Shown here: positions 5,761-31,550 of the stretch, piece by piece | Layout of the letters: each line of letters opens with the position of its first letter | Position numbering within the stretch: position 1 is the stretch's first letter | UHGV virus genome: UHGV-0208736 | Strand: one strand, 5' to 3' | Origin: a virus | DNA: 31,562 bases | Notes under the pieces: model-generated | What the model was told of the DNA's origin: nothing | Database searches by the model: none | What the model saw: only the letters and a program-made list of their open reading frames with translations | Program-made: the position numbers and the translations under genes

Positions 5761-5888
5761 TCCAGCACCCACAGATAAATTGCGATAAACATGCCAAATA
5801 CGGCAACCATCATGCCGTATTGACCCTCGTGACAGTAGACACCGGCGGCGAATCCAGCCAGTACTGCGATAATCAGTTTACTTAGCAT
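5757..5888 (-). CDS. unannotated 43-aa hydrophobic (membrane) peptide
   Basis: MLSKLIIAVLAGFAAGVYCHEGQYGMMVAVFGMFIAIYLWVLE; ATG at 5888 lies 8 nt inside the 3' end of the DNA polymerase gene with AGAGGT SD 7 nt upstream. Confidence 0.35.
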   Translation of the reverse strand: MLSKLIIAVLAGFAAGVYCHEGQYGMMVAVFGMFIAIYLWVLE

Positions 5889-8148
5889 AACGGTACACCT
5901 CTTCCCCGGCCCATGTTAGTGGGAACCCTTTGGCCCATTCAGGTAATGAGCATAACAGGTCGCCCATCTCTTTAACCGTGTACTCCGGTGTGTCTGGTGT
6001 TTCGGCGACACACTCATCGTGTACGTGAAGTACAATTGGGTAGCCCGCTGCCTCGACCGTCAGGAGTCCGTTGACCAGTAAATCACGGCACAACGCTTGA
6101 ATGATGTTTTCACACAATTTTCCGCCGTGTGTGTACAAAGTCGTCCACTGGCGGGTGGTCTGATTTTCGCCCTGGTATTTAATGCGAACGTTAGTTGTTA
6201 CGCGCCCATCCTCGTCGGTCTCTTTAGTGACGCTTAAACCTATACCAGGGTAGGACATGATGCGCCCAGACGGCAGTTCCACACACAACCACCAACCCGG
6301 CACAAAGTTACCCTGTCTGTCTTTCTCTTTAGTACGCCAGATGCGAATAGCCCTGTCGCCGTTAAGGCGTACTCTGGCCCCCGCCCAAAACTCTCGTCCC
6401 GGATTTCTGATTGCAGCAATCACCGAATCCTTAAGGTCGTTCCAGAATCTCACTGTTTCCGGATGGGCCTCGCGCCACATGCGCTTGATAGCGTCGCAAG
6501 TGCGCCAGACTTCCTTAGGCAACACGTAAGAGGCCCGTTCGTCCTTTTTACCAGGTTTTGGCGGCCGCTTAGCCTCCTGAATCCGCGCCCATTCATAGCC
6601 TCGGGCAGTGGCGGCCCATATATGGTCAGGGAATGTCCCCCGCATTGTCTCCGTCATTTTAAAGAGGTCCAGCCCATAAGTTTTAGCCATAGTCATGAAG
6701 GCCCCTACACCTCCCTCGTAGCCGAGGCCCAGCTCGCAACATTTCCCGACCTGTCGTAGGTCTTTACGGGTGGCTTTCAGCTCTATAGGATCCATGCCAA
6801 ACATCTTGCCCGCAGTGGCGCAATAAATATCAATCCCCGCGCGGAACGTCTCAAGGGCAGATGTCTCCCCCGCCGTCCAGGCTAACCCACGGCCTTCCAC
6901 GTTCGAGTAGTCGGCAACGAGTAACTTATTACCTTTTTCCGGGATGATGCAGCTGCGGACAGTCGAGGCCGTTAGCTTAGATACATCAAAACGGCGATGC
7001 GCCCGGCCCTTTAAAAGCAAATTGATGCCGAAGGATAGCGGGTTAAGCCTGCGGTTCCAGTCTTCGTCGGACTCCCACGGCTGGCGTACGAGTTTCTTTT
7101 CCTCGTTAGTCGGGTCGTCGTGGTAGTACCCACGCGACAGGTTCTGCGGCTGGAACCCTTTGCCCGCAAATCGTAAAGTGCGCTTTGCCCCACCGTACTG
7201 GATGCAACCACGGCGTCGTCCGTCTTTGGACCGTCCTAGCAGGAGCGGTTTATATTTTGTTGACGCCGTGGAGGCCGCGCCGAGGCGCATCTCAATGATT
7301 GTGCGCGCATCGTTAGGTAAGTCGTCGTCCTCTAGCAAACCTTCGAGCGTTGCTTTCTGCGCATTATAAATATTGTAGGCCGGTGCCAGTTCCCGAAGGA
7401 TTGGCAGGAAGTCTTTGCCCGTTAGCTTCCCGCCAAATTTCGCGCGGGCCTCGTTTTTTAGCTCTTGCTTGTGACGTTCAACTGCCGCGACCGCCGCCTC
7501 AGCAAGAGCCGTATCGACAAAGAAGCCTCGGTCGTTGATTAGCTGGTCCAGTTCCAGTACACGGTCTTCGAACTCAGAGTTACCCCAACGCGGCAGCTTA
7601 TGGAAGACCTCACGCATTGCAGTGATGTCGCTTACGGCGTACTTGATGAACAGCGCCCACTCGTCCGGGTGTGTTTCCGCGGTGTAGCGACGGATTTTGT
7701 AGTTCTTCGGCGTCGGTTTAGAGAAACGCTGAATCAGCGCCTTGCCCCGCTTATCTTTCGCGTTGTCCGCAGATACTCCCAGCACTTCGCATAATGCATC
7801 GAGTGAACCCGGCAGCGCGTGGCGAAACGCCCAAATCATCGTATCAATGGTGTTGCTTACCGGAATATCAAAACCCCAGCAGTGCTTCATGATGAGCCTA
7901 TCGAACATTAAAAAGTTATGGCCCACGATTTTCATACGTCCGCGCATAACATTACGGAGCGCCATGCGTAGGCTTATTGGCATTACTGGTTCGGAAGTGC
8001 AATCCCATACTTCTACTGGACCATCATCAACGGCATACGTACAAATTATAACCTCTGTCGTTGGGTGCTCCGCATACGCATACGACCCGACTTTCTTTAA
8101 GTCTGCTTCGGAGAATGTCTCGGTATCCAGGTATAATAAACTAGTCAT
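5878..8148 (-). CDS. DNA polymerase, family A, with N-terminal 3'-5' exonuclease domain
   Basis: 756 aa; Exo I motif YLDTETFS; polymerase motif A LLVADYSNVEGR; motif C VLHVHDECV; AAGGAA SD upstream of ATG 8148. Confidence 0.85.
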   Translation of the reverse strand: MTSLLYLDTETFSEADLKKVGSYAYAEHPTTEVIICTYAVDDGPVEVWDCTSEPVMPISLRMALRNVMRGRMKIVGHNFLMFDRLIMKHCWGFDIPVSNTIDTMIWAFRHALPGSLDALCEVLGVSADNAKDKRGKALIQRFSKPTPKNYKIRRYTAETHPDEWALFIKYAVSDITAMREVFHKLPRWGNSEFEDRVLELDQLINDRGFFVDTALAEAAVAAVERHKQELKNEARAKFGGKLTGKDFLPILRELAPAYNIYNAQKATLEGLLEDDDLPNDARTIIEMRLGAASTASTKYKPLLLGRSKDGRRRGCIQYGGAKRTLRFAGKGFQPQNLSRGYYHDDPTNEEKKLVRQPWESDEDWNRRLNPLSFGINLLLKGRAHRRFDVSKLTASTVRSCIIPEKGNKLLVADYSNVEGRGLAWTAGETSALETFRAGIDIYCATAGKMFGMDPIELKATRKDLRQVGKCCELGLGYEGGVGAFMTMAKTYGLDLFKMTETMRGTFPDHIWAATARGYEWARIQEAKRPPKPGKKDERASYVLPKEVWRTCDAIKRMWREAHPETVRFWNDLKDSVIAAIRNPGREFWAGARVRLNGDRAIRIWRTKEKDRQGNFVPGWWLCVELPSGRIMSYPGIGLSVTKETDEDGRVTTNVRIKYQGENQTTRQWTTLYTHGGKLCENIIQALCRDLLVNGLLTVEAAGYPIVLHVHDECVAETPDTPEYTVKEMGDLLCSLPEWAKGFPLTWAGEEVYRYAK

Positions 8149-20664: not shown

Positions 20665-21077
20665 TGGGATACTTTGAGGACTTAACAAAAGCGTTTGATG
20701 TGCCGCTGGTAGCCTTCGGAACCACCAACGGCATCAGGGTTGCGCTTGAAAACATCGACGCGCCGACGTCGACCGATACCCCGTATCTGGCAAGTTACAT
20801 GCTACTTGCGGATACGGAACAGGCTGACTTGTTCTTCACGGAACAACGTGCAGGTGTCTATCAGGTCGACATTAACTACGCATCGGTGAAAGGTAGCGCG
20901 CCGATCAATAAAATGGCAGACTTACTTAACACGGCGTTTAAAGCGGGTAAGTCATTTTCACGTAATGACATCTGTGCCGAGGTTCAATCGGTTAGCCTGG
21001 GGCCGCTGATTGTAGAAAACGGATGGGCCAAAAGACCATTGTCAATTAACTTTATTGCATTCACCAAGAGGCTGTGA
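20661..21077 (+). CDS. probable tail terminator / tail completion protein
   Basis: 138 aa; position immediately upstream of major tail gene; overlapping start/stop. Confidence 0.35.
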   Translation: MMGYFEDLTKAFDVPLVAFGTTNGIRVALENIDAPTSTDTPYLASYMLLADTEQADLFFTEQRAGVYQVDINYASVKGSAPINKMADLLNTAFKAGKSFSRNDICAEVQSVSLGPLIVENGWAKRPLSINFIAFTKRL

Positions 21078-21079
21078 AT

Positions 21080-22246
21080 ATGGCTACAACTCCTTTTAAG
21101 GGCGCGAATACCGCGCAATTCTATGTGGCGGAAACTACCCCGGGCGTAGCACCGGCTAACCCGGTATGGTCGCCGTTGCGTAACACTGGCGGTGTTCCTG
21201 CGGTAACCCGCGATGCGCTAACTTCCAACGAACTGGACGGCAGCCGTGAAACTACATCCATCCGAACCGGTAACAAGCAGGTTAGCGGGGAGTATGCCAT
21301 CGAGCTTAGCTCACGTAGCCAGGATGATTTCCTCGCGGGCGCGATGACTTCTACGTGGCAGGCTGGGGTAGAGATTACGGGTGCTGAAATTACGGTTGCC
21401 CCAGCAGGTAAAACATTTACCCGCGCTGCCGGTAGCTTCATTACTGACGGTGTAGAAGTTGGCGACCTGATTGCGTTCACCGACTTAACTGGCGACAACG
21501 CAAAACCGTTTATCGTGACCGAGGTTTCTGCTCTTGTAGTTACGGGTGCTGGCATTCAGCACACGCTGACAGCAGAGACTGTAACCACCGACGCTAAAAC
21601 CGGTGACAAACTGGAAACCGGTAACGCATGTAAGACGTTCTCCATCCTGACGTGGTTCAAAGGTCAGTGCGGCAACCCGGACGCGTACATGCTGACCAAA
21701 GGTGTCGAAATCTCTGGCTTCACCATAGAGCAAGCGGTCAACGCGATGGTTACGGGTAGCTTCCCGTTCATCGGCTTGAGCCAGGAGATTCTTTCTGCAC
21801 CGCCAGCGGGTTCTGACTTCTCGCAAGTAACCTTCACCGATGAGCCGTTCTCGTCTGTAGATGTGTCTGTGTTCGACGGTTCTACGCCGTTACGTTGCGA
21901 CACGCTTACCATCACCAACGACAACGGCGCATCCGCGCAGTTTGAACTCGGCAACAGTAGCGTGGCGTTCGTGGAACGTGGTCGCGCGGCTAACACCTTC
22001 TCCATCTCAGGCAAGCTGTACGACATGGCGATGATTCAGAAGTTTATCAACGAGCAGCAGGTAGAGATTAACTCTATTCTGGCGGGGGTAAACGGTGCTA
22101 TGTCTTTCAGTTTGAAACGTGCGGAGCTCACGGCGGTTACGCCAGAGATTGGCGGACCGGAGTCAATCACTCAAAGCATAGAAGGACAGTCCACAGGTAA
22201 CCAGTACCAGTCGTCTATTGTTATTCAGCGCATCACCTACGCATAA
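21080..22246 (+). CDS. major tail (tube) protein
   Basis: 388 aa from ATG 21080 (SD AAGAGG 8 nt upstream); followed by strong terminator; precedes chaperone and tape-measure genes. Confidence 0.5.
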   Translation: MATTPFKGANTAQFYVAETTPGVAPANPVWSPLRNTGGVPAVTRDALTSNELDGSRETTSIRTGNKQVSGEYAIELSSRSQDDFLAGAMTSTWQAGVEITGAEITVAPAGKTFTRAAGSFITDGVEVGDLIAFTDLTGDNAKPFIVTEVSALVVTGAGIQHTLTAETVTTDAKTGDKLETGNACKTFSILTWFKGQCGNPDAYMLTKGVEISGFTIEQAVNAMVTGSFPFIGLSQEILSAPPAGSDFSQVTFTDEPFSSVDVSVFDGSTPLRCDTLTITNDNGASAQFELGNSSVAFVERGRAANTFSISGKLYDMAMIQKFINEQQVEINSILAGVNGAMSFSLKRAELTAVTPEIGGPESITQSIEGQSTGNQYQSSIVIQRITYA

Positions 22247-22514: not shown

Positions 22515-23015
22515 CTATTTATAACCGTTGTTGAATGTTGTCAGCCCGTGGTTTATGTGGAATTTATTGGCTACGGACATGTAAATTCTTTCCGCAAAAG
22601 CGTCCTCTATTCTGTCAAATGTTTTACTAATCTGCTTGCCATTGACAACGGCATACGCTCTCCACTTAGTTTTTCCTTTCCGCGCCACGCCAGTAACTCC
22701 AGAGGTATTATCTTTGCGCCTTTTCACGTTAACCATGTTGTCCCTTCTTGATTTGCAGGACAGGTTTTCAATTCTGTCATCACATGTATCATGGTTAGTG
22801 TGGTCTATGACAAATCCTTTCGGAATCTTACCTGAGAACATCTCATACACCACCCTCGACCTTTTAAACTTACGGTTGCCAAACATGACGTACCAATAGC
22901 CGTTTTTACACAAACTCCCAGCCACATCACCTACATTCACATCGTTACGGCGACACGATTTTACTTTCCAGTATAGGACGCCGTTTTTGTAGCTAAAAAC
23001 TTCGCTCCAGTCCAT
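22515..23015 (-). CDS. HNH homing endonuclease with AP2-type domain (third copy)
   Basis: HNH core GFVIDHTNHDTCDDRIENLSCKSRRDN; AP2-like GVTGVARKGKTKWRAYAVVNGKQISKTFDRIEDAFAERIY. Confidence 0.75.
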   Translation of the reverse strand: MDWSEVFSYKNGVLYWKVKSCRRNDVNVGDVAGSLCKNGYWYVMFGNRKFKRSRVVYEMFSGKIPKGFVIDHTNHDTCDDRIENLSCKSRRDNMVNVKRRKDNTSGVTGVARKGKTKWRAYAVVNGKQISKTFDRIEDAFAERIYMSVANKFHINHGLTTFNNGYK

Positions 23016-23030
23016 CCTTTCACCTGTATT

Positions 23031-24185
23031 TTAGTATGTTGATTTGGGGTTCATATCTCGCAGCATTTCAACAGGTATACTTATACGGGACACCTCGCCG
23101 TATCGTTTATGGTATGTAATCACATTTGCGCTCCTGCCGGAATAATAGCCGCCTTTACTAGAATACTCATCTTTAGCCGCTAATGTCTGGTGTTGCTCAA
23201 CAATTAGAAGATTAGTCTCTTTAACCGCCCTGTGATGAAGGTGGCCCGTATGGACATATGTGAACTTACACTGCCCGTACATCTCACGATACTTACCAAT
23301 TATAGACTGCTCTACCCTAGTAAAGTTAGAGCAATGCCCGTGGTGCGCCGAAATCATACAATCCCCGAACTTGTACGCATAATACGGCGATACCTCCCGG
23401 TTAACCTCAACACGAGGCTCGTTTGTGTACACCTCATAGAACATCTCTCTGAGCCACAGAGAAGAACTAAGGTCGTGGTTTCCCTCGCAAATAAGAAGTT
23501 TAACCTTCTTGTGTTTTCGCAGGCACAGCGAGACCGCCAGCTTGATAACCTTAACGGCTGTACGTATCATTTTAAACAGGCGACTATCCGCTGAAAGAAT
23601 ATGGCCGCTCATAGGGGTCATTGCCTTCATGCCATCGTAGTGCATCTGGTCCCCTAAGAAGTTAATGATACACTCCCCGCTCTGCGGACTCATACAAACC
23701 GCACTGTTGAACCAGTCAACTGCGAGAGATTCCGCAATTGTGGTGTCGTAATCATCTCCGCCTTCTTCTTGACACGCCAGCATACCGATGTGATGGTCCG
23801 TTATTGTGTAAAGATTTAATAAGTCGTCATCTGTGTCATTTTTAAGCAAAGTGGCCGGTTTATACTTAGGTAAATCTTTTTTCATCTCGTCCACAACGGC
23901 TTTCATCAATTCGACCTGACGTTCAGCGTCGGTGTCAGTCTTAACCCATTGCAGCTTAGTGTTGCCGAACTCGTCCACAAGTGACGACGTCCCTTTAATC
24001 TTGTATCCATCTGGCACAAGGTGACTAACGTCTCGCCCGTGACCTACGCCTTTCTTTGCCAGCTTCGCCTTACGGATACGAATAACGCGGTCTGAGATGC
24101 CGTATTTACGGGCTATATCGATATTCTTCATCCCGGCATTCAATTCTTCCTGTAACTGCTCATCGGTTATTTTCTTCTGGGCCAT
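23031..24185 (-). CDS. HTH-fused calcineurin-like metallophosphoesterase (Mre11/SbcD- or class III phosphodiesterase-like motif set)
   Basis: 384 aa; N-terminal HTH IDIARKYGISDRVIRIRKAKL; complete phosphoesterase motif series TDHH (DxH), FLGDQMHYDG (GD), ICEGNHD (GNHD), SAHHGH, HTGHLHH (GHxH); SD GAGGA. Confidence 0.65.
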   Translation of the reverse strand: MAQKKITDEQLQEELNAGMKNIDIARKYGISDRVIRIRKAKLAKKGVGHGRDVSHLVPDGYKIKGTSSLVDEFGNTKLQWVKTDTDAERQVELMKAVVDEMKKDLPKYKPATLLKNDTDDDLLNLYTITDHHIGMLACQEEGGDDYDTTIAESLAVDWFNSAVCMSPQSGECIINFLGDQMHYDGMKAMTPMSGHILSADSRLFKMIRTAVKVIKLAVSLCLRKHKKVKLLICEGNHDLSSSLWLREMFYEVYTNEPRVEVNREVSPYYAYKFGDCMISAHHGHCSNFTRVEQSIIGKYREMYGQCKFTYVHTGHLHHRAVKETNLLIVEQHQTLAAKDEYSSKGGYYSGRSANVITYHKRYGEVSRISIPVEMLRDMNPKSTY

Positions 24186-24223
24186 GCTTGCGTCCTCGTG
24201 TTTAGGATTTGTCCTATACTAGC

Positions 24224-24415
24224 TCACTTCTCTTTAACGTTCGAGTTGCAAGCCCAGATTAAAATAAATACCCACGGCAGCAGAACCCAGCCAAGAAACA
24301 GATTAGCAGTGAATATCGCTAATTTCGCTTTATGGTCACGGAAGTATGCAACCAGGAAAGGCGCGAAATAAGCGAGCAGTGCAAACAGAATTAAGGAAAC
24401 TGGTAAACTGGACAT
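24224..24415 (-). CDS. superinfection-immunity-like small membrane protein (63 aa from ATG 24415)
   Basis: MSSLPVSLILFALLAYFAPFLVAYFRDHKAKLAIFTANLFLGWVLLPWVFILIWAC; two TM segments around a basic loop and an NLFLGW motif resembling the Imm/superinfection-immunity family (from memory); SD AAGGGG upstream of Met29 of the track ORF. Confidence 0.55.
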   Translation of the reverse strand: MSSLPVSLILFALLAYFAPFLVAYFRDHKAKLAIFTANLFLGWVLLPWVFILIWACNSNVKEK

Positions 24416-24432
24416 TTTAAACCCCTTCATTG

Positions 24433-24489
24433 TTGGTGTAAGTGAATAGTACCCTATTATATTGGGGTGCGCAAGTAATGTGATAGAAT
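24433..24489. promoter_or_regulatory. divergent promoter region: plus-strand TTGGTG-N16-TATTAT and TTGGGG-N16-TAGAAT; minus-strand TATAAT (plus 24456-24461) for the accessory island
   Basis: Seen directly; located in the 167-bp gap between the island and the tail chaperone gene; the minus -35 (ATCACA) is weak. Confidence 0.35.
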
Positions 24490-24582
24490 AATTTTGCACC
24501 TAGTGTCGCACACGAAAAGCGGGTGGTTCCCGTCTGGTGCATTTACCGTTAACCTGTAACCTCTTAACCAAAGGATTAAAGA

Positions 24583-24999
24583 ATGAAACTTTCAGATTTT
24601 TATTTCGAAGAGAAAGCACTGGTAGGCAAGAAGATGCCGATTCTGCTTCCAAACGGCGAAGACTCAGGGGAGTGGCTTAACGTTGTAAACCCTGATGCGG
24701 ATGTCGCCGTTAAAGCGGGGCGCGCTTTCATTATTGCGTACCGTCGCGGACTGGCGCGTTTCGAAGAACTGGAAAAAGCCGCCAAAGATTCCGGCGACTA
24801 TACTGAATATAACCTGGCGGTCAACGAACTGGCGGAAGACCTCAACCGGCAACTTGCAGCAGAAGTCGTAAACGGCTGGAGCTTTGATGAGCCTTTCTCT
24901 AAGGAAGCGTTTAACAAATTGCTGGACCAGTTCAAGGCCTTAGGCACACAGGTAGCAGCGTTCCATAACGCCGAGCGCAAAGCATTACAGGAAAAGTAG
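24583..24999 (+). CDS. tail assembly chaperone (gpG-like)
   Basis: 138 aa acidic protein directly upstream of tape measure gene; SD AAGGA; ends at slippery GGAAAAG-TAG. Confidence 0.55.
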   Translation: MKLSDFYFEEKALVGKKMPILLPNGEDSGEWLNVVNPDADVAVKAGRAFIIAYRRGLARFEELEKAAKDSGDYTEYNLAVNELAEDLNRQLAAEVVNGWSFDEPFSKEAFNKLLDQFKALGTQVAAFHNAERKALQEK

Positions 25000-25364
25000 A
25001 CGCGCTGTACAGGTTCGCCACCTACGAGTTTGTGGATAAGCATAAAATCAGAGAGTTTGATTCTATAGCTGACGGGCACGAACAGGCGCTTATCGCGATG
25101 GGTGTAATCGATAAGAAAAAACGTGCAGCGCGACGGGGTGGGCCAGAATGCCCGCCCCTTTTTATATCCACCTTTGAAACGTACTGTGACATTAAGTTTA
25201 CGCGACACGTGCGCGAGGACGCTGTAGTATTGTTTGCAAGAGAATCCGTTACGTGGCAAGACCTGAAAGCCTATCTCGATGTTACGCAAAAACAGCTTAG
25301 CCTGTTCGAGATAGACATTATCATGGGCTTAGAAGCAATCTTTGAAGGTAGAAATCATGGCTGA
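24969..25364 (+). CDS. tail assembly chaperone frameshift extension (gpT-like portion of a G-T fusion), -1 frame
   Basis: The -1 frame is open from 24969 to 25364, overlapping the last 10 codons of the G gene; no good in-frame ATG/SD of its own (the track start is GTG at 25032). Confidence 0.45.
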   Translation, partial: RRAQSITGKVDALYRFATYEFVDKHKIREFDSIADGHEQALIAMGVIDKKKRAARRGGPECPPLFISTFETYCDIKFTRHVREDAVVLFARESVTWQDLKAYLDVTQKQLSLFEIDIIMGLEAIFEGRNHG

Positions 25365-27630
25365 TACCGCTAGCTTGATAGTACGAGTATCATCGACCGG
25401 CGTCGATAAAACCACATCACAACTGAACGGGCTTACCAAAGCCGCTGGCGCTGCCGCTGCTGCCGTTGTCAGTCTGGAAACCGCTAAGCAGGTGTTCAGC
25501 GCGCTGGTGGACTCCCAGCGCAACTTCGATAAGCTGAACTCCGGCCTCATCACGATGACCGGGAGCGCAGAGAACGCGGCTAAAGCTTTCAGCGTCCTGC
25601 AACAGTTCGCAAAAGAAACACCATACGGACTTAATCAGGCGGTGGAAGGCTTTACTAAGCTGGTGGCTCTTGGTCTGAACCCCAGCAAAGAGGCATTAAT
25701 CTCCTACGGCAACACCGCGGCCGCCATGGGTAAAGACCTTAATCAGATGATTGAGGCAGTTGCCGACGCCAGTACCTTTGAGTTTGAGCGACTAAAAGAG
25801 TTTGGCATCAAGTCGTCGCAACAGGCGGATACAGTGTCGTTCACGTTCCGCGGCGTTACCACCACGGTTAAAAAGAACTCCGAAGAGATTCAGAAATACC
25901 TCCTGAACATCGGTAACACTGATTTCGCCGGGGCGATGGAGACGCGCTCGAAGACATTAGACGGTCAGTTATCCAGCCTCGCCGACTCCTTCGATGGCCT
26001 TGTTCTCGCCGTAGCGCAGTCTGGTTTTGGTGACGCCGTAGGTGAGCAAGCGGCCACAGCGGAAGACGCTATCACGGCGCTTACCGACGCCATCGCGTCT
26101 AATGAGATAGCCGCCACGCTCCAGGATTGGGTAACGTTGTTCAATGAGTCATTCAAGTTTATTTCCGACGCCTTGAATGACCTGGCATTCGATACCGAGG
26201 ACAAATCCGTTGATATGTCTGACTCGCTGGGGACTATACCGGATGCCATCCGTGAGTGGCTGCCGGACATCCAGCAGACATTTCACGAGGTTATTGCGTG
26301 GTTCCAGCGCATTGACGATTACGCCGTAGCGCTTGGCCAGACCCTCGCCGATGTGTTTGACCCGAGCAAAACGGCAGCGCTCACATTTAAAAAACTGACT
26401 GCAGAGGCTGATGCCGCATACGACGCCAGCATAAAACGCGCAGAGGCAGAATCACAGGCCATTACCAACAGGTCTAAGCAGCGTAAGAAAGAAATTGAGG
26501 AACAGCGCAAGCAGTATGACGAGCGCAAGAAGCAAGAAATTGACTTAGCCAGCCTTGTTAATAAAAAGGGCGGAACTGGTGGGGCGGGGACAACCGACGA
26601 TAAAGCAGCAAAAGCCGCCGCCAAGAAAGCAGAGCAATTGCGTAATCAGGCGCAAGACTACCTCGACACTTTGGCCCGTCAGAACAACGACGAGTTAAAG
26701 GCTATTGACGCGCAGGAACAGCAGAAACTGGCTAAAGCAAAAGAGTTCTACAGCCAGGGCGCGCTGTCGCTGAAAGAATACGAGCAAGCAAAAACGGCTA
26801 TCGTCCTTGAAGCTGGACAAAAACGACAAGATGAACTGGATAAACGCCAGAAAGAAGCTCAGGAAAAGCAGCAGAAAGGCGACGACTTCATGGCTCAGAT
26901 TATGGGCCAGAACGCCACTGAGCTTGAGCTTCTCGACATCCAGGAACAGCAGAAACTGGCGGTCGCCGATAAATACCGCGAACAGGGGCTGATTAACGAG
27001 GAACAGTATCAGGCGGCACTTAACGCTATCAACGAGCAATACGCAACCAAGCGTGCCGACGCAACGGCAACCGCCTTTGGTAATATGGCCTCAAACATCG
27101 GGTCCGCGTTGGGTGAGGCTTCTGGTGCGTATAAGGCATTCGCTATTGTGCAAGCCACTATCGCCACGTACACCGCAGCTATTGAAGCATATAAGTCAAC
27201 GGCCGCTATCCCTGTAGTTGGCCCGTTCCTGGCCCCCGTAGCCGCTGCCGCTGCCGTTGGGGCTGGGATGGCGCAGATTTCCGCTATCAGGTCTGCGCGT
27301 GAACAGGGCGGCCAGCTATCAGCGGGGCAGGCTTCCACCATCGCTGAACGTGGTAAACCAGAAGTTATCATGCCCGCTAGCGCATCACGTGTACGCACAG
27401 CACAGCAAATGAAAGAAATTATGGGGCAAAACGGGTCTTCTTCCGGACCGTCTAATGTTACCATCGTAAACAACACGAGTTCTCAAATCGGCAACGTATC
27501 CACTGAGCAAGACGATGAGGGGCGTCTTCGTATCATCATCGAAGAGCAAGTTGCCGCATCTTTGCAGAACAGCAACAGTAAGATTAGCAAGGCCCGCAAG
27601 GCCACAAGAAACGCGCCGGGGTTCAAGTAA
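25357..27630 (+). CDS. tail tape measure protein
   Basis: 757 aa from ATG 25357; long Ala/Gln/Lys/Glu-rich coiled-coil; hydrophobic Gly/Ala-rich segment (AIPVVGPFLAPVAAAAAVGAGMAQ); internal in-frame repeats; follows G/GT. Confidence 0.8.
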   Translation: MADTASLIVRVSSTGVDKTTSQLNGLTKAAGAAAAAVVSLETAKQVFSALVDSQRNFDKLNSGLITMTGSAENAAKAFSVLQQFAKETPYGLNQAVEGFTKLVALGLNPSKEALISYGNTAAAMGKDLNQMIEAVADASTFEFERLKEFGIKSSQQADTVSFTFRGVTTTVKKNSEEIQKYLLNIGNTDFAGAMETRSKTLDGQLSSLADSFDGLVLAVAQSGFGDAVGEQAATAEDAITALTDAIASNEIAATLQDWVTLFNESFKFISDALNDLAFDTEDKSVDMSDSLGTIPDAIREWLPDIQQTFHEVIAWFQRIDDYAVALGQTLADVFDPSKTAALTFKKLTAEADAAYDASIKRAEAESQAITNRSKQRKKEIEEQRKQYDERKKQEIDLASLVNKKGGTGGAGTTDDKAAKAAAKKAEQLRNQAQDYLDTLARQNNDELKAIDAQEQQKLAKAKEFYSQGALSLKEYEQAKTAIVLEAGQKRQDELDKRQKEAQEKQQKGDDFMAQIMGQNATELELLDIQEQQKLAVADKYREQGLINEEQYQAALNAINEQYATKRADATATAFGNMASNIGSALGEASGAYKAFAIVQATIATYTAAIEAYKSTAAIPVVGPFLAPVAAAAAVGAGMAQISAIRSAREQGGQLSAGQASTIAERGKPEVIMPASASRVRTAQQMKEIMGQNGSSSGPSNVTIVNNTSSQIGNVSTEQDDEGRLRIIIEEQVAASLQNSNSKISKARKATRNAPGFK

Positions 27631-28130
27631 TGAGCGACTTATTTTTTCCACGTAGCCTTAAGCCTATCGTATCGAAAGGCTACTCGATGACCAGACGTAA
27701 CAACGTCTGGAGTGTCGATTTAGCCGGTGGCGGTGTGCGTCAGGGTCGTGACACGTATTACGACGTGTTCCCGATAAGCGTAACTCTGGTTACATCAGCG
27801 TTAGGGCGGCAGGCGTTTCTGTCGTTCCTTGAGAAAGTAGACGGCGGTGCGTCAAGTTTCTGGATGGCGCACGACTTCGGCATGGGTATCGAAGATTACC
27901 AGGTAACAATCACGTCCACCATCGCGGAATCCACCGAAGACGGCATTAATTGGACGATTTCTTTCACAGCAACCGCGGAGAAATCACCGTTTCAGGATGA
28001 AGATAACCATTGCCTTGTTAACAATCTGCCGGATTTGTATGGTTGCTATGGTGACGGGCTGGGATGCTTCCTTAAAGCCTACGGAACCGCGCAATCAACG
28101 TTTCCACGAATTTGGGACCCGATGCAATGA
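27630..28130 (+). CDS. minor tail protein, gpM-like
   Basis: 166 aa; ISVTLVTSALGRQAFLSFLEKVDGGASSFWM parallels the lambda gpM pattern (SVTLSV...FLEEHGGWKSFLW, from memory); first gene after tape measure. Confidence 0.5.
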   Translation: MSDLFFPRSLKPIVSKGYSMTRRNNVWSVDLAGGGVRQGRDTYYDVFPISVTLVTSALGRQAFLSFLEKVDGGASSFWMAHDFGMGIEDYQVTITSTIAESTEDGINWTISFTATAEKSPFQDEDNHCLVNNLPDLYGCYGDGLGCFLKAYGTAQSTFPRIWDPMQ

Positions 28131-28642
28131 GCCAGGAATCAGTAGAAGCAGCCTATCGCCGTAAGCTGGCCTCGAACCCCGACGGCGAGATGGACTACAT
28201 CACGTTGCAAATCAGCCACCCGTTACTATCGAAGACGTACTATCTTGTGCGCGGGTTGCAAGAACTTACGGCAACGCTAGAGACGGGCGAAACCATCACA
28301 TTCGAACCTACCCCGATGGAAGCGTCGGGGGCCGCTAACAACAGTGATATGGACCAGACGACGACGTTTACTTTACCGGATATCCTCAATCAACTTGATG
28401 ATGAGATGGGCAAAATCCCGATGAGTAATACTGAGCTGCCGAAGTTCGTCTTCCGCCGTTATGTCAGCACCGACCTGTCTTATCCCGCTGACGGTCCTGT
28501 CGTGTACGAGTTGCAGGCCATCAACCAGGAGAAGGGAGAGTTCTCCGCGGATGTTGGTACACCTATGCTGAACCAACGAAGCACTGGTATACTGATGACA
28601 CCTAAAGAGATACCGTTATTACGCGGCCTGTTGACCACATGA
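28127..28642 (+). CDS. minor tail protein, gpL-like
   Basis: 171 aa from ATG 28127 (ATGA overlap with upstream stop); position between gpM-like and gpK-like genes. Confidence 0.45.
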   Translation: MSQESVEAAYRRKLASNPDGEMDYITLQISHPLLSKTYYLVRGLQELTATLETGETITFEPTPMEASGAANNSDMDQTTTFTLPDILNQLDDEMGKIPMSNTELPKFVFRRYVSTDLSYPADGPVVYELQAINQEKGEFSADVGTPMLNQRSTGILMTPKEIPLLRGLLTT

Positions 28643-29004
28643 ATATTAACGACTACACGGGCATACCTTACGACTTTCGCAAACGCAATTGCTGGCATCA
28701 CGTGCGCATTGTTCGCGCAGATGCAGGATTAGAAACCCCGGCGTTCGACGTTACAAGCCCAACGGCGATTAACGAAGCGTTTGATGAAGGGCATCGCAAC
28801 ACGAAGGGGCTTACAAAGATTGATAATCCTGAAAACTTATGTGCGGTGCTTATGGGGTATCGCCGCGGTGGTCGTATCGTGTGGCATGCAGGAGTTTACT
28901 TCGACGGGATGGTGAGTCATTGTGAGCTTGCCTCCCGTCAGGTACGGCTTGACAGGCTGGCGGACCTAAGAGACACGTACACGGAGATTGAATTTTGGCG
29001 ATAA
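28639..29004 (+). CDS. tail assembly protein with NlpC/P60-type peptidase motifs (gpK-like)
   Basis: 121 aa; candidate Cys/His catalytic residues in NCWHHV, WHAGVYF and SHCE. Confidence 0.5.
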   Translation: MNINDYTGIPYDFRKRNCWHHVRIVRADAGLETPAFDVTSPTAINEAFDEGHRNTKGLTKIDNPENLCAVLMGYRRGGRIVWHAGVYFDGMVSHCELASRQVRLDRLADLRDTYTEIEFWR

Positions 29005-31550
29005 TCCTGCACTACACGCGAAACGCTGATGGCGCTTTCGACCGTACAAAACACGTCGGGATGCCGATGGAATTTGTCGTTAACCGTATCCCGGACGGCG
29101 TGCCTGTGCGCGTCTACCTCGGCGAAATTGGTGACGATACAGATGTAACTGACGATTTCTACGCGCTTAAAGATGAAGACGCCGTGTACCACGTTATTGA
29201 GGGCGCAGGTAGCGGGGCGCTTGGTGCCGTTAGTAAGGTGTTCGGTTTTATCCTTAAACCAATTGCTAAGTTGTTTGGGCTTAGCCAGACGTCTAACGCC
29301 AACTACACGGCGACAAATAATCAGACAACATCGCCTAATAACAGTCTCACAGACCGCTCAAACAAGCCGCGTCCTTACGAGCGCTCTTATGACATTTGCG
29401 GAACTGTGCAGACAATCCCCAACGACCTGATGCAGACGTATAAGGCGTTCAACTCCACGGGTGCTTTGCTGGAGTATTCGTACTACGACGCGGGGCGCGG
29501 GCATCTGCATATTGAGGCTGACGGCGTCACGGAAGGCGACACCCTGATAAGCGACATCACAGGTTCCTCTGTTGCCGTGTATGCCCCGTACACGTCACCT
29601 AACAATACCACATCCCCGCAACTACAAATCGGCGACGTCATTGACCAGAAACTCTATGTAACATACTCCAACGACGACGTTGACGGTATTGTGTTGAAAG
29701 CGCCAAACGATATCGGAGCTAATCCAAGCGCCGGCGGCACCGCCAAACGTATTTCAACCACCGGCTACCTATACGACCCGTCTGGTGACTCTGCTTTTTC
29801 TGAGTTTCTTAGTGTTGGTGATGTCGCAGTGCTGAGCAATTTTGACGTTAAGGACGTCACTAACCTGAACGGCTCATTTGAGGTTTTATATGTCGACGAC
29901 TTCGAGGTTCGGTTGTACGTCGGGAATATAGGAAATTGGGGAAACCTTAATAGCGGAGAGACTTACGCGCTTACAGAGCGTTCAGATGCGTTCATTGGCC
30001 CGAGCAACACCTATGACGTATCCCTTACTGACTGGTATTACATGGTTCGCGGAGAGGTCGACCGTGTGCTTGCTAACGTTGCGGGGCAAAACGGCCTCTA
30101 CAAATACGACGGCGGCTATAACCGCACCAGCGTAACCGTAGAACTCCAGTACCAGATGATTGACTCCCAACGCAACCCTTTGAGCGACATTTACACGGTA
30201 CGGGCTACAATTACGGGCAATAATACCGATTACGTCGGTACGTCTATCTACGGGCAGTTGCCTACGGCATCGCGTTTCCGCGCCCGTATGCGCCGTATAA
30301 CGAATTTCGATAAAGACTACGACGGAACGGTAAGCGACGAGATAACGTTCATCAACCTGTACGGGCAGTCTCTGGACACAACCCCGCATTACGGCAACCG
30401 AACTACCGTACATTGCGCCCGTAAACAGACGCCACGTGCCGCAAGTATCGACAACCCGGAACTGCGCATGATTGCAACCGAGATGTGCTTCAAATACTTA
30501 GGCAATGGGGTATTCGATACAGTAATGACCCCGAACACGCAGGCCGTGCAGTCCCTAATTCGACTGGCGCGCGACCCCGCGGTGGGTAATCTGGAACTGA
30601 CAACGGCAAACATGGATAAGTTGCTTGCCGTGCAGGAAGAGATTGAGTCCTATTTCGGAAGTGAGTTAGCTGGTCAGTTCTGCTACACGTTCGACGACTA
30701 CGACACAACCATGCAAGACATCGTTCAGACCGTAGCGGAAGCTGTGTTCTGTACTGCGTACCGTAAAGGTGCGGATATTATGCTGCGATTCGACCGTCCG
30801 GTTGCTGGGCCAGAGATGGTGTTCACCCACCGCAGTAAGACGACCGGAACGGAGAAATGGACACGCACGTTCAATGATTCTACTACCTACGATAGTCTGT
30901 CTTTCTCGTACATCGACCCGGATACGAACGTACAGGAAACTATTTATATCCCGGAAGAACTCGGTACCAACACCGAGGAATACGAATCAAAGGGTGTACG
31001 TAACTATCAGCAGGCATATTGGCTGGCGTGGCGTCGCTACCAGCGCAATACATTAAGTAAAGTTGTTGTAGAGTTCGAAGCTACGGAAGAAGGCGCTCTT
31101 GCCACCCCCGGAGGGGTAATCAGCGTGGTTAAAGGTTCACGTATTGCACCCCAAGACGGCTATGTTGTTGCCGTTAATGGGCTTACACTTACGCTATCCC
31201 AACCTGTTACGTTTACCCCCGGAGACGACCACTCCATCATTCTTAAGAAGCGCGACGGCTCAGTACAGAGTATCTCCGTTATCAAAGGAAGTCACGACCG
31301 CGAAGTGATTATGCTCTCCGCGCCGGAGGAGGCAATCTACACGGGGAATAGCGCGCTAAAAACTGAGTTTTCATTCGGCAACGAAGCAAGGCATAATGCT
31401 CAGAAGATAGTTGTTTCTTCAATCGACCCGGGCGACGACCGCACGGTCAAGATTACAGGCTACAACTATGACGACGGATTCTATAAATACGACGGCGTCG
31501 CGCCATACGGCAGCGGTTTCTCCGACGGATTCAGCAATGGCTTTAATTAA
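28995..31550 (+). CDS. central tail fibre / host-specificity protein (gpJ-like) with gpI-like N-terminal segment; start codon uncertain (TTG 28995 with GGAG SD, or ATG 29061)
   Basis: 851 aa; N-terminal DEDAVYHVIEGAGSGALGAVSKVFGFIL parallels the lambda gpI motif (DGAVIHIVPRVAGAKSGGVFQIVLG, from memory); remaining ~700 aa large tip protein; ends at TAA 31548-31550. Confidence 0.6.
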   Translation: MAIILHYTRNADGAFDRTKHVGMPMEFVVNRIPDGVPVRVYLGEIGDDTDVTDDFYALKDEDAVYHVIEGAGSGALGAVSKVFGFILKPIAKLFGLSQTSNANYTATNNQTTSPNNSLTDRSNKPRPYERSYDICGTVQTIPNDLMQTYKAFNSTGALLEYSYYDAGRGHLHIEADGVTEGDTLISDITGSSVAVYAPYTSPNNTTSPQLQIGDVIDQKLYVTYSNDDVDGIVLKAPNDIGANPSAGGTAKRISTTGYLYDPSGDSAFSEFLSVGDVAVLSNFDVKDVTNLNGSFEVLYVDDFEVRLYVGNIGNWGNLNSGETYALTERSDAFIGPSNTYDVSLTDWYYMVRGEVDRVLANVAGQNGLYKYDGGYNRTSVTVELQYQMIDSQRNPLSDIYTVRATITGNNTDYVGTSIYGQLPTASRFRARMRRITNFDKDYDGTVSDEITFINLYGQSLDTTPHYGNRTTVHCARKQTPRAASIDNPELRMIATEMCFKYLGNGVFDTVMTPNTQAVQSLIRLARDPAVGNLELTTANMDKLLAVQEEIESYFGSELAGQFCYTFDDYDTTMQDIVQTVAEAVFCTAYRKGADIMLRFDRPVAGPEMVFTHRSKTTGTEKWTRTFNDSTTYDSLSFSYIDPDTNVQETIYIPEELGTNTEEYESKGVRNYQQAYWLAWRRYQRNTLSKVVVEFEATEEGALATPGGVISVVKGSRIAPQDGYVVAVNGLTLTLSQPVTFTPGDDHSIILKKRDGSVQSISVIKGSHDREVIMLSAPEEAIYTGNSALKTEFSFGNEARHNAQKIVVSSIDPGDDRTVKITGYNYDDGFYKYDGVAPYGSGFSDGFSNGFN

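Follow-up and report, generated by a model that had tools for sequence, protein, structure and literature searches.

A 20-nt in-frame repeat in a Kagunavirus-type tape measure gene as the probable trace of an old internal duplication

Gene context of the repeat

The window, i.e., the whole stretch of 31,562 nt of viral DNA analysed here, bears on its plus strand a gene of the Kagunavirus/K1G type for a tail tape measure protein of 757 aa (25357-27630, including the stop codon). Its product matches the profile PHROG 1538 ('tail length tape measure protein') with an E-value of 1e-194, residues 1-751 aligning with profile positions 1-811, while residues 51-218 match the Pfam family TMP_3 (PF20155) at E=1.1e-9 and 38.7 bits, a score slightly below the curated cutoff of 41 bits. 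The latter family is also precomputed for every close homologue among the matches listed. At the nucleotide level, 40 phage records among the matches listed cover at least 91% of the query with 86-93% identity, and those of them that are annotated all call the gene tape measure. Identity amounts to 88-93% across the entire 2289-nt query in 30 phage genomes among the matches listed, and the fetched records of full-length matches are classified as Guernseyvirinae, Kagunavirus. Moreover, a metagenome-assembled Caudoviricetes genome encodes a protein 100% identical to the tape measure of the window.

Upstream of the gene, Pfam matches to Phage_TAC_4 (E=8e-6) and Phage_TAC_18 (E=7e-19) mark a tail assembly chaperone pair on the plus strand (24583-25364), made up of the ORFs 24583-24999 and 25032-25364; in K1G and fTaEco01, the CDS annotated for the homologous chaperone is joined from two pieces. 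Downstream follow, also on the plus strand, distal-tail genes at 27630-28130, 28112-28642 (DUF1833, E=6e-16), 28639-29004 and 28995-31550 (gpJ-like, with a weak FNIII-A_GpJ match). This synteny, with chaperones on one side and minor-tail and gpJ-like genes on the other, together with the full-length PHROG match and the nucleotide identity to annotated Kagunavirus genes, bears out the earlier assignment of the repeat-bearing gene as tape measure. Judged by these sequence comparisons, it belongs to the tape measure genes of K1G-like (Kagunavirus) coliphages.

The repeat and the duplicated module

The window contains exactly two occurrences of the 20-mer CAGGAACAGCAGAAACTGGC, both on the plus strand, and no further one even when three mismatches are allowed. 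Copy 1 (26713-26732) covers codons Q453-A459 and copy 2 (26941-26960) codons Q529-A535, both encoding QEQQKLA; both start on a codon boundary of the ORF and are spaced by 228 nt, corresponding to 76 codons. With these exact matches located and a second copy of the 20-mer arising in none of 100 dinucleotide-preserving shuffles, the perfect in-frame repeat of the original prediction is confirmed. The 20 bases are identical because the QEQQKLA residues carry the same codons in both copies. Similarity at the DNA level reaches beyond the 20-mer, spanning 53 nt at 72% identity (26680-26732 versus 26908-26960), and Tandem Repeats Finder applied to positions 25000-28000 reported two short GCCGCT runs only and no tandem array.

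At the protein level, the surrounding segments form two modules, detected by pairwise alignment and profile search on the plus strand: module 1 with residues 441-491 (RQNNDELKAIDAQEQQKLAKAKEFYSQGALSLKEYEQAKTAIVLEAGQKRQ, 26677-26829) and module 2 with residues 517-567 (GQNATELELLDIQEQQKLAVADKYREQGLINEEQYQAALNAINEQYATKRA, 26905-27057). A gap-free alignment of 51 aa (residues 442-492 versus 518-568) has a BLOSUM62 score of 99, about 12 SD higher than the mean of 500 shuffles (32.5 ± 5.6, maximum 52), in agreement with the similarity noticed before between the correctly quoted peptides AQEQQKLAKAKEFYSQG and IQEQQKLAVADKYREQG. Outside of the QEQQKLA core, the module copies are down to about 40% amino-acid identity. 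Among 228 tape measure proteins, the profile search recovered two copies of the module in 63, one in 31 and none in 134, whereas three modules were found in none of them. Cluster representatives with two copies, at about 40-60% identity and with unrelated N-terminal halves, mostly keep a spacing of 74-76 aa, and in many divergent relatives both copies are matched at E-values of 1e-15 to 1e-31. Copy number differs (one versus two) between deep clades, the relatives with a single module being about 40 aa shorter across the interval (median 108 versus 148 aa). On the evidence of alignment and profile, the two segments are considered true internal homologues, and the 20-nt repeat is most probably what remains, at the nucleotide level, of a duplication within the gene, old and fixed, that affected the alpha-helical centre of a tape measure of the Guernseyvirinae type. 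That it merely reflects a chance coincidence in a low-complexity coding region, with segments lacking true homology, can hardly be maintained. Q, E and K do abound in the region, and several weak direct repeats are present, yet shuffled sequences, the 51-aa alignment and the profile matches at conserved spacing in divergent relatives all reject this explanation.

A single-sequence AlphaFold2 model of residues 402-601, which represents a fragment of the monomer as opposed to the trimer within the tube of the tail, has a mean pLDDT of 75.5, with values >85 over roughly residues 440-500. Helices are modelled at residues 412-466, 472-542 and 548-588, interrupted by QGALS (467-471) in module 1 and QGLIN (543-547) in module 2. 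Each module would accordingly comprise the end of a long helix with QEQQKLA.A...Y, a five-residue turn beginning with QG and the beginning of the helix that follows (..EY..A..AI). As modelled, this fragment of the central region is long and largely alpha-helical, as is usual for tape measures. A solved structure with detectable sequence similarity was not found.

The Kagunavirus/Guernseyvirinae tape measures assigned to PHROG 1538 (K1G ORF23, K1ind1-3, JSSK01 and fTaEco01) are, at 757 aa and 98-100% identity, materially the same as the protein of the window and share with it the gene order, the two modules and the pair of 20-mers 228 nt apart; the internal duplication is not annotated in these records. 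Like the tandem 11/18-aa repeats marked by aromatic residues in the tape measures of TP901-1, p2 and mycobacteriophages (PMC5099701), the duplication lies internally in the helical, length-determining part. Unlike these arrays, the 51-aa module of the window is present only twice, with a period of 76 aa and in fixed number, and a Trp/Phe periodicity of 11/18 is missing, as W/F pairs at a distance of 11 or 18 residues number just one, compared with the 2.2 that shuffles lead one to expect (p=0.9). On its own, the ancient and fixed duplication that gave the K1G-type tape measure its two modules is of little importance.

Length among relatives and a possible role in tail length

The 120 best protein matches are all 757 aa long and 98-100% identical to the protein of the window. 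When pooling both protein searches, each evaluated for its best 120 matches out of roughly 3,700 homologues, 141 close variants were obtained, 136 of which have 757 aa and the remaining five 760 aa; none has 681 or 833 aa. In the second of these searches, a synthetic 833-aa duplication product was employed as query, and its best 120 matches were again all of 757 or 760 aa. Since the wild type is credited by HMMER with the sum of two domains (1686 bits), a variant would have to exceed roughly 96% identity to stand out here, and a deletion variant is not reliably rankable by protein search, as the two-domain score of the wild type would outrank it. The sole site of length difference among close relatives is a Gly/Thr-rich linker (KKGGTGGAGTT, residues 403-413, 26563-26595 on the plus strand), about 50 residues upstream of the repeat, where three residues (GKG or NKG) are added; in a codon alignment of 26 genes the gap columns fall directly after residue 402. 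Such a unit is the kind of element stressed in a study on length tuning of tape measure proteins by homorepeats and short repeats (Moreno-Rodriguez et al., 2026, PMC13585406), albeit at a site (residues 402-413) other than the 20-nt repeat.

Nucleotide-level searches gave the same picture. The exact 20-mer was found in 23 IMG/VR contigs, all of the same tape measure family, with two copies in ten and one copy in 13; in all ten contigs with two copies the spacing is 228 nt, and neither a third copy nor an odd spacing is present in any of the 23. Recombinant junctions were searched with degenerate patterns, using the wild-type copy-1 junction both as positive control and as detector of duplications. 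For the deletion junction, no matches were obtained in any of three collections (viral, metagenome and genome), the last two containing only 12 carrier contigs, and for the duplication junction there were none in the viral one. The copy-1 junction of the wild type was detected in 11 metagenome contigs and one genome contig, once per contig. Owing to these small denominators, the negative results from the metagenome and genome collections are weak. Across Kagunavirus, both the two-module layout and the length of 757 aa are constant, and the length differences actually seen are the 3-aa steps in the linker and the exchange of divergent allele segments between phages. As 757 aa are kept despite about 8% nucleotide divergence, the length of the tail ruler in the Kagunavirus group is under tight stabilising selection.

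These data bear on the suggestion in the original prediction that the repeat permits recombinational changes in tape measure length and, hence, in tail length, which should become apparent as differences in multiples of 76 codons. By established tape measure biology, the protein would act as a ruler, with the two modules simply being part of its length and fold. Unequal crossing-over at the repeat could in principle give proteins of 681 or 833 aa and, at 0.15-0.16 nm per residue, tails whose length would change by about 11-12 nm (about 10%) in the one or the other direction. This scale fits the protein of the window, as the tail of JSSK01 measures 124 ± 6 nm (PMC11641727) and its tape measure, with 757 aa and 98% identity to that of the window, corresponds to 0.16 nm per residue. 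In favour of a repeat that really yields such variants by recombination, it is direct, in-frame and 228 nt from its partner, and the module copy number does differ between deep clades. Furthermore, tail length scales with tape measure length in TP901-1, where in-frame deletions and duplications in the tape measure gene give tails shortened or lengthened in proportion and often viable, and it has already been proposed that repeats in these genes could ease duplication or deletion of domains (Mahony et al., 2016, PMC5099701). The engineered TP901-1 variants are laboratory-made, and they predict the tail change of about 10% for a crossover at the 20-mer.

In spite of these arguments, it is very unlikely that the repeat serves as a recombination substrate actually giving rise to tape measure and tail-length variants. 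A protein longer or shorter by 76 aa was encountered in none of the 141 close proteins, the 30 genomes with full-length matches and the 23 IMG/VR contigs, recombinant junctions were not found in the collections searched, a three-copy protein does not occur among the 228 tape measures, and the single-copy relatives are shorter in the interval by 40 aa, not by 76 aa. For efficient RecA-dependent exchange in E. coli, about 23-27 bp of identity are usually needed, which exceeds the 20 nt available. The copies also do not co-vary: among the 26 genes, the core of copy 2 shows the variants GAG (twice), AAG (three times) and TTG (twice) with no matching change in copy 1, and a CAA variant of copy 2 is likewise without a copy-1 counterpart in the same genomes. 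The independent variation of their synonymous sites gives no indication that the copies still exchange sequence, and concerted evolution or gene conversion, which would have mirrored the copy-2 variants in copy 1, was rejected. In-frame deletions and duplications in the tape measure gpH of phage lambda have reportedly been engineered as well (Katsura and Hendrix, 1984). Products of unequal crossing-over, not seen in nature, are presumably rare and selected against. Hence, what stood of the original prediction is the identity of the gene and the homology of the segments, whereas natural length switching was not found and, as a source of natural polymorphism, is largely refuted: length differences in multiples of 76 codons do not occur among the close relatives examined. 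Since all of these relatives have kept both copies, the repeat is a fixed and ordinary property of the gene and does not function as a switch of tail length. As a matter of caution, a direct repeat that lies in frame within a tape measure gene is no proof of actual length variation there.

Synonymous conservation of the core and allele exchange

The account of an old, fixed duplication may be incomplete where it explains the 20 identical bases by the same residues carrying the same codons by descent or chance. When assuming independent choice according to the gene's own codon usage, the chance of identical codons in both QEQQKL stretches is about 0.012, and nowhere in the gene is synonymous conservation higher than in the copy-1 core. 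It forms the longest run of invariant codons (seven) among 26 distinct close tape measure genes, and codons 453-459 are the sole seven-codon window of 751 with zero synonymous diversity, at a mean heterozygosity of 0.23 for the whole gene. This conservation is unusual, albeit modest. Synonymous variation in copy 2 is ordinary (17th percentile). In the more distant allele L014 (62-64% amino-acid identity and 40% codon identity at conserved residues), the copy-1 core is kept as an exact match of 23 nt, and in L029 (57% identity) it differs by one base. Identical codons amount to 9 of 13 and 10 of 14, compared with a background of 0.40-0.44. A regulatory or RNA-based explanation was discarded, as the window has no Rfam matches and neither core bears a promoter- or terminator-like site.

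A second observation concerns the 3' edge of copy 1. Three contigs with tape measures of 807-808 aa (L015-L017) match the window at about 90% identity as far as CAGGAACAGCAGAAACT and at about 60% or lower from precisely there on, i.e., from this edge. The replacement cassette, as seen in L016, has no near match in isolated phages except for its last 190-200 nt or so, and no close protein among the 228 tape measures collected. Further breakpoints lie near nt 1490-1510, 1575 and 1690 of the gene, beside conserved islands such as DFMAQIMGQN..ELELL.

Taken together, this could indicate a constraint on the core at the nucleotide level, either as one among several short islands of conservation for recombination between divergent alleles of co-infecting Guernseyvirinae or as the remnant of a past short gene-conversion tract, with a relevance for length via allele exchange (757 versus 807 aa) and not via slippage within the gene. 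The absence of synonymous diversity at codons 453-459, the matches in L014 and L029, the position of the L015-L017 breakpoint, the lack of a near match in isolated phages for most of the cassette and the mosaic tape measure genes known from this group, as in vB_EcoS_HSE2 (PMC5967307), point in this direction. Nevertheless, such a constraint is unlikely. The exchange ending at the core is one event only, carried by the three contigs, while other breakpoints are found at other islands, so that the core is not unique; copy 2 varies ordinarily, the excess of identical codons is modest, with other short runs being similar in L029, signals of Rfam, promoter or terminator type are missing at the cores, and both repeat and statistic were chosen after inspection of the data. 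The more specific idea that the 18-23-nt QEQQKL(A) core is kept at the nucleotide level because co-infecting Guernseyvirinae preferentially cross over there when exchanging halves of their tape measure genes is likewise improbable. If true, the ruler would change its length by cassette exchange (757 aa becoming 807 aa in L015-L017), the duplicate within the gene would be a by-product, and the core would be a concrete case of a short conserved 'linker' guiding mosaicism within a structural gene. Compared with the fixed duplication itself, the synonymous conservation of copy 1 and its coincidence with one mosaic breakpoint are the part possibly worth more work.

Mosaicism of another position is found in vB_EcoS_HSE2, which belongs to the same phage group as the window and whose tape measure gene combines 1577 bp at the 5' end resembling Salmonella phages with 610 bp at the 3' end resembling E. 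coli phages (Peng and Yuan, 2018, PMC5967307). Its junction precedes copy 2 by about 85 nt and is thus not in the 20-mer, leaving that of L015-L017 as the only one coinciding with a core. In kind, the vB_EcoS_HSE2 junction matches the L019-type alleles, whose identity to the window is about 90-100% from nt 1500 or so of the gene onwards.

Gene setting and the internal repeat

The repeat lies within a plus-strand ORF of 757 aa (ATG at 25357, stop codon ending at 27630). Its full-length match to PHROG 1538 ("tail length tape measure protein") has E = 1e-194, and its TMP_3 domain at residues 51–218 scores 38.7 bits, slightly below the Pfam cutoff of 41 bits. Directly 5' are two ORFs for tail assembly chaperones (Phage_TAC_4 and Phage_TAC_18), while DUF1833 and gpJ-like minor tail genes are located 3'. 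Among the matches listed, at least 30 phage genomes (K1G, K1ind1-3, JSSK01, fTaEco01, and others) share 88–93% identity over the full 2289 nt, and every annotated one labels the gene as tape measure; 11 of the 12 phage records fetched give a Kagunavirus lineage and the remaining one gives no lineage. The protein is identical (100%) to a "MAG TPA ... Caudoviricetes sp." entry and shows 99% identity to K1G ORF23. From full-length PHROG match, synteny and Kagunavirus identity, the gene was correctly assigned in the original prediction and is a typical representative of the tape measure family in Kagunavirus. The other genes of the window, encoding tailspike, helicase, DNA polymerase, exonuclease, primase-helicase, major head protein and tail protein, fit a Kagunavirus genome. 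The chaperone ORFs (24583–25364) sit in different frames, and the homologous CDS in K1G and fTaEco01 is annotated as a two-piece join, an arrangement that would fit a programmed frameshift as in lambda G/GT. Between the tail protein gene (21074–22246) and the chaperones, the plus-strand tail module is interrupted by three minus-strand genes at 22515–24499, encoding an HNH endonuclease (22515–23015), a DNA repair exonuclease (23031–24185) and a small protein similar to those of superinfection immunity (24224–24499).

The 20-mer CAGGAACAGCAGAAACTGGC is found on the plus strand at 26713–26732 (copy 1) and 26941–26960 (copy 2) and at no other site in the window, even when allowing up to three mismatches, and a second match did not arise in any of 100 dinucleotide-preserving shuffles. 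Both copies start at a codon boundary (Q453 and Q529, respectively) and are 228 nt, that is 76 codons, apart. Ungapped extension results in 72% DNA identity across 53 nt, and the gap-free alignment of residues 442–492 with 518–568 (51 residues) reaches a BLOSUM62 score of 99, compared to 32.5 ± 5.6 (maximum 52) in 500 shuffles. Hence, the repeat is real and beyond chance, and position, spacing and frame as well as the similar peptides had been predicted correctly. In contrast to the aromatic tandem repeats of 11/18 aa in the TP901-1, p2 and mycobacteriophage proteins, it comprises only two copies with a period of 76 aa; an 11/18-aa aromatic periodicity was not found in the protein (1 pair observed versus 2.2 expected). 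Internal repeats are an already known kind of feature in tape measure proteins, and what is new is this unannotated instance.

Constancy of tape measure length

Efficient RecA-dependent exchange usually needs more than 20 nt of identity; therefore, length changes by exchange between the two 20-nt copies should be rare. Tail length in TP901-1 scales with that of the tape measure, and repeats were proposed to ease duplication or deletion (PMC5099701), a general principle that is still valid. From the 757-aa protein and the 124 ± 6 nm tail of JSSK01 (PMC11641727), 76 residues are estimated to correspond to about 11–12 nm, i.e., about 10% of the tail.

The length changes in steps of 76 codons postulated in the original prediction were not found among the relatives examined. 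The best 120 protein matches all have 757 aa at 98–100% identity, and when a synthetic 833-aa duplication product served as query, the matches listed were exclusively proteins of 757 or 760 aa. Pooling the close variants listed from both searches gives 136 proteins of 757 aa and five of 760 aa (n = 141). Likewise, at least 30 phage genomes among the matches listed align across the entire gene; of the 26 distinct close genes compiled, 24 measure 2274 nt and two 2283 nt. The 20-mer is present in 23 IMG/VR contigs, ten of which carry two copies, always 228 nt apart, and none three; the other 13 show a single one because the second copy has drifted by 1–3 bases or is part of another allele. With degenerate patterns, neither the deletion junction (the core between the 5' flank of copy 1 and the 3' flank of copy 2) nor the duplication junction was found in IMG/VR. 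Metagenome and species-genome collections also lacked the deletion junction; in these two, the wild-type copy-1 junction occurs once per contig in 12 carrier contigs. Moreover, the GAG (2), AAG (3) and TTG (2) variants of copy 2 among the 26 genes have no counterparts in copy 1, and none of three changes in copy 2 of locus L012 is mirrored there, so that evolution of the two copies is not concerted. Constant lengths, fixed spacing, absent junctions and independent copies therefore argue against length switching, and repeat-driven change would be a generic possibility that these comparative data do not support here. The feature is a fixed ancient duplication in a length-constrained ruler protein.

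The only length polymorphism among the 141 close variants listed, 760 versus 757 aa, stems from an extra GKG/NKG unit that follows residue 402 in the Gly-rich linker KKGGTGG, some 50 residues ahead of copy 1 (KKGGTGGAGTT, 26563–26595, residues 403–413; 3-aa variants in L102, L109, P0275, and P0280). It looks like the short-repeat or homorepeat tuning of tape measure length recently described (PMC13585406), with which it agrees.

Age and predicted structure of the duplicated module

A profile derived from both copies was run iteratively on 228 tape measure proteins, namely the window protein, 77 loci from IMG/VR and 150 representatives of clusters at 50% identity, detecting two modules in 63, one in 31 and none in 134, while a three-module protein was not among them. 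Spacing in two-copy proteins is mostly 74–76 residues and persists at only about 40–60% identity to the window protein or with an unrelated N-terminal half (e.g., representatives P0122, P0126, P0130-P0137, and P0142). Given this wide, evenly spaced occurrence in divergent proteins, the duplication is old, precedes the split of Kagunavirus-like and Jerseyvirus-like alleles and has been inherited stably. A more distant clade (L039, L041, L043, L044, and L047; 704–720 aa, about 41% identity) shows one detectable module, starting 108 aa from a conserved hydrophobic anchor versus 148 aa in two-copy proteins, a difference of 40 residues and not a clean 76.

Single-sequence AlphaFold2 modeling of residues 402–601 as a monomer fragment (mean pLDDT 75.5, above 85 over about 440–500) predicts three long helices (412–466, 472–542, and 548–588). 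Since the breaks, QGALS (467–471) and QGLIN (543–547), are at equivalent repeat positions, each module may form a corner of helix end, QG turn and helix start within the helical ruler region.

Mosaic alleles and conservation of the copy-1 core

Sequence comparison shows the tape measure gene to be mosaic. Three IMG/VR contigs (L015-L017) encode proteins of 807–808 aa which share about 90% identity with the window through ...CAGGAACAGCAGAAACT and then fall abruptly to about 60% or below, the switch coinciding exactly with the 3' border of the copy-1 core (L015:2263–2300, L016:2850–2890, and L017:1623–1660, equivalent to window 26707–26735). Replacement by a cassette of about 290 aa lengthens this segment by roughly 50 aa; high identity is regained only in L017, at the extreme 3' end (about 70–80% in L016, not in L015), and isolated phages gave no near match to the cassette except to its last 190–200 nt or so. 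In L019, L022, L031, and L034, the 5' part is foreign and is followed by 90–100% identity to the window from gene nt 1490–1510 or thereabouts, roughly 85 nt upstream of copy 2. Divergence begins at about nt 1575 in L045 and L012 and 1690 in L009, and the mosaic gene of vB_EcoS_HSE2 has a previously described junction near nt 1577 (PMC5967307). Thus, breakpoints cluster in the central helical region adjoining several conserved islands, of which the copy-1 core is one and not the sole one. A second nucleotide-conserved island across divergent alleles (L012, L019, L023, L031, and L045) is located at 26884–26934 (DDFMAQIMGQNATELELL), with several breakpoints directly before or after it.

Identical codons in two independent QEQQKL stretches have a chance of about 0.012 under the gene's own codon usage. 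By a statistic picked post hoc, codons 453–459 (26713–26733) are the longest invariant-codon run among the 26 distinct Kagunavirus sequences and, of 751 seven-codon windows, the sole one that lacks any synonymous diversity (gene mean 0.23); copy 2 is ordinary (17th percentile). The core is nearly unchanged in alleles with only 57–64% protein identity: L014 retains a 23-nt exact match despite sharing only 40% of codons at conserved residues, and L029 differs by one base, with other short runs in L029 reaching similar codon identity. No RNA family, promoter or terminator signal was found at either core. This modest anomaly would fit either a short conversion tract in the past or the use of the core as favoured crossover point, and a functional meaning is improbable.

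Besides, residues 467–562 of the 756-aa DNA polymerase (minus strand, 5878–8148) also match the endonuclease family phrog_93 (E = 1.7e-10) and could be an inserted nuclease-like segment. Near-identical tape measure genes are also recorded in MAGs attributed to unrelated bacteria (P0014, Cutibacterium avidum; L112, JAEWLW010000060.1, "Bacillota bacterium"), most likely due to binning errors in public records.
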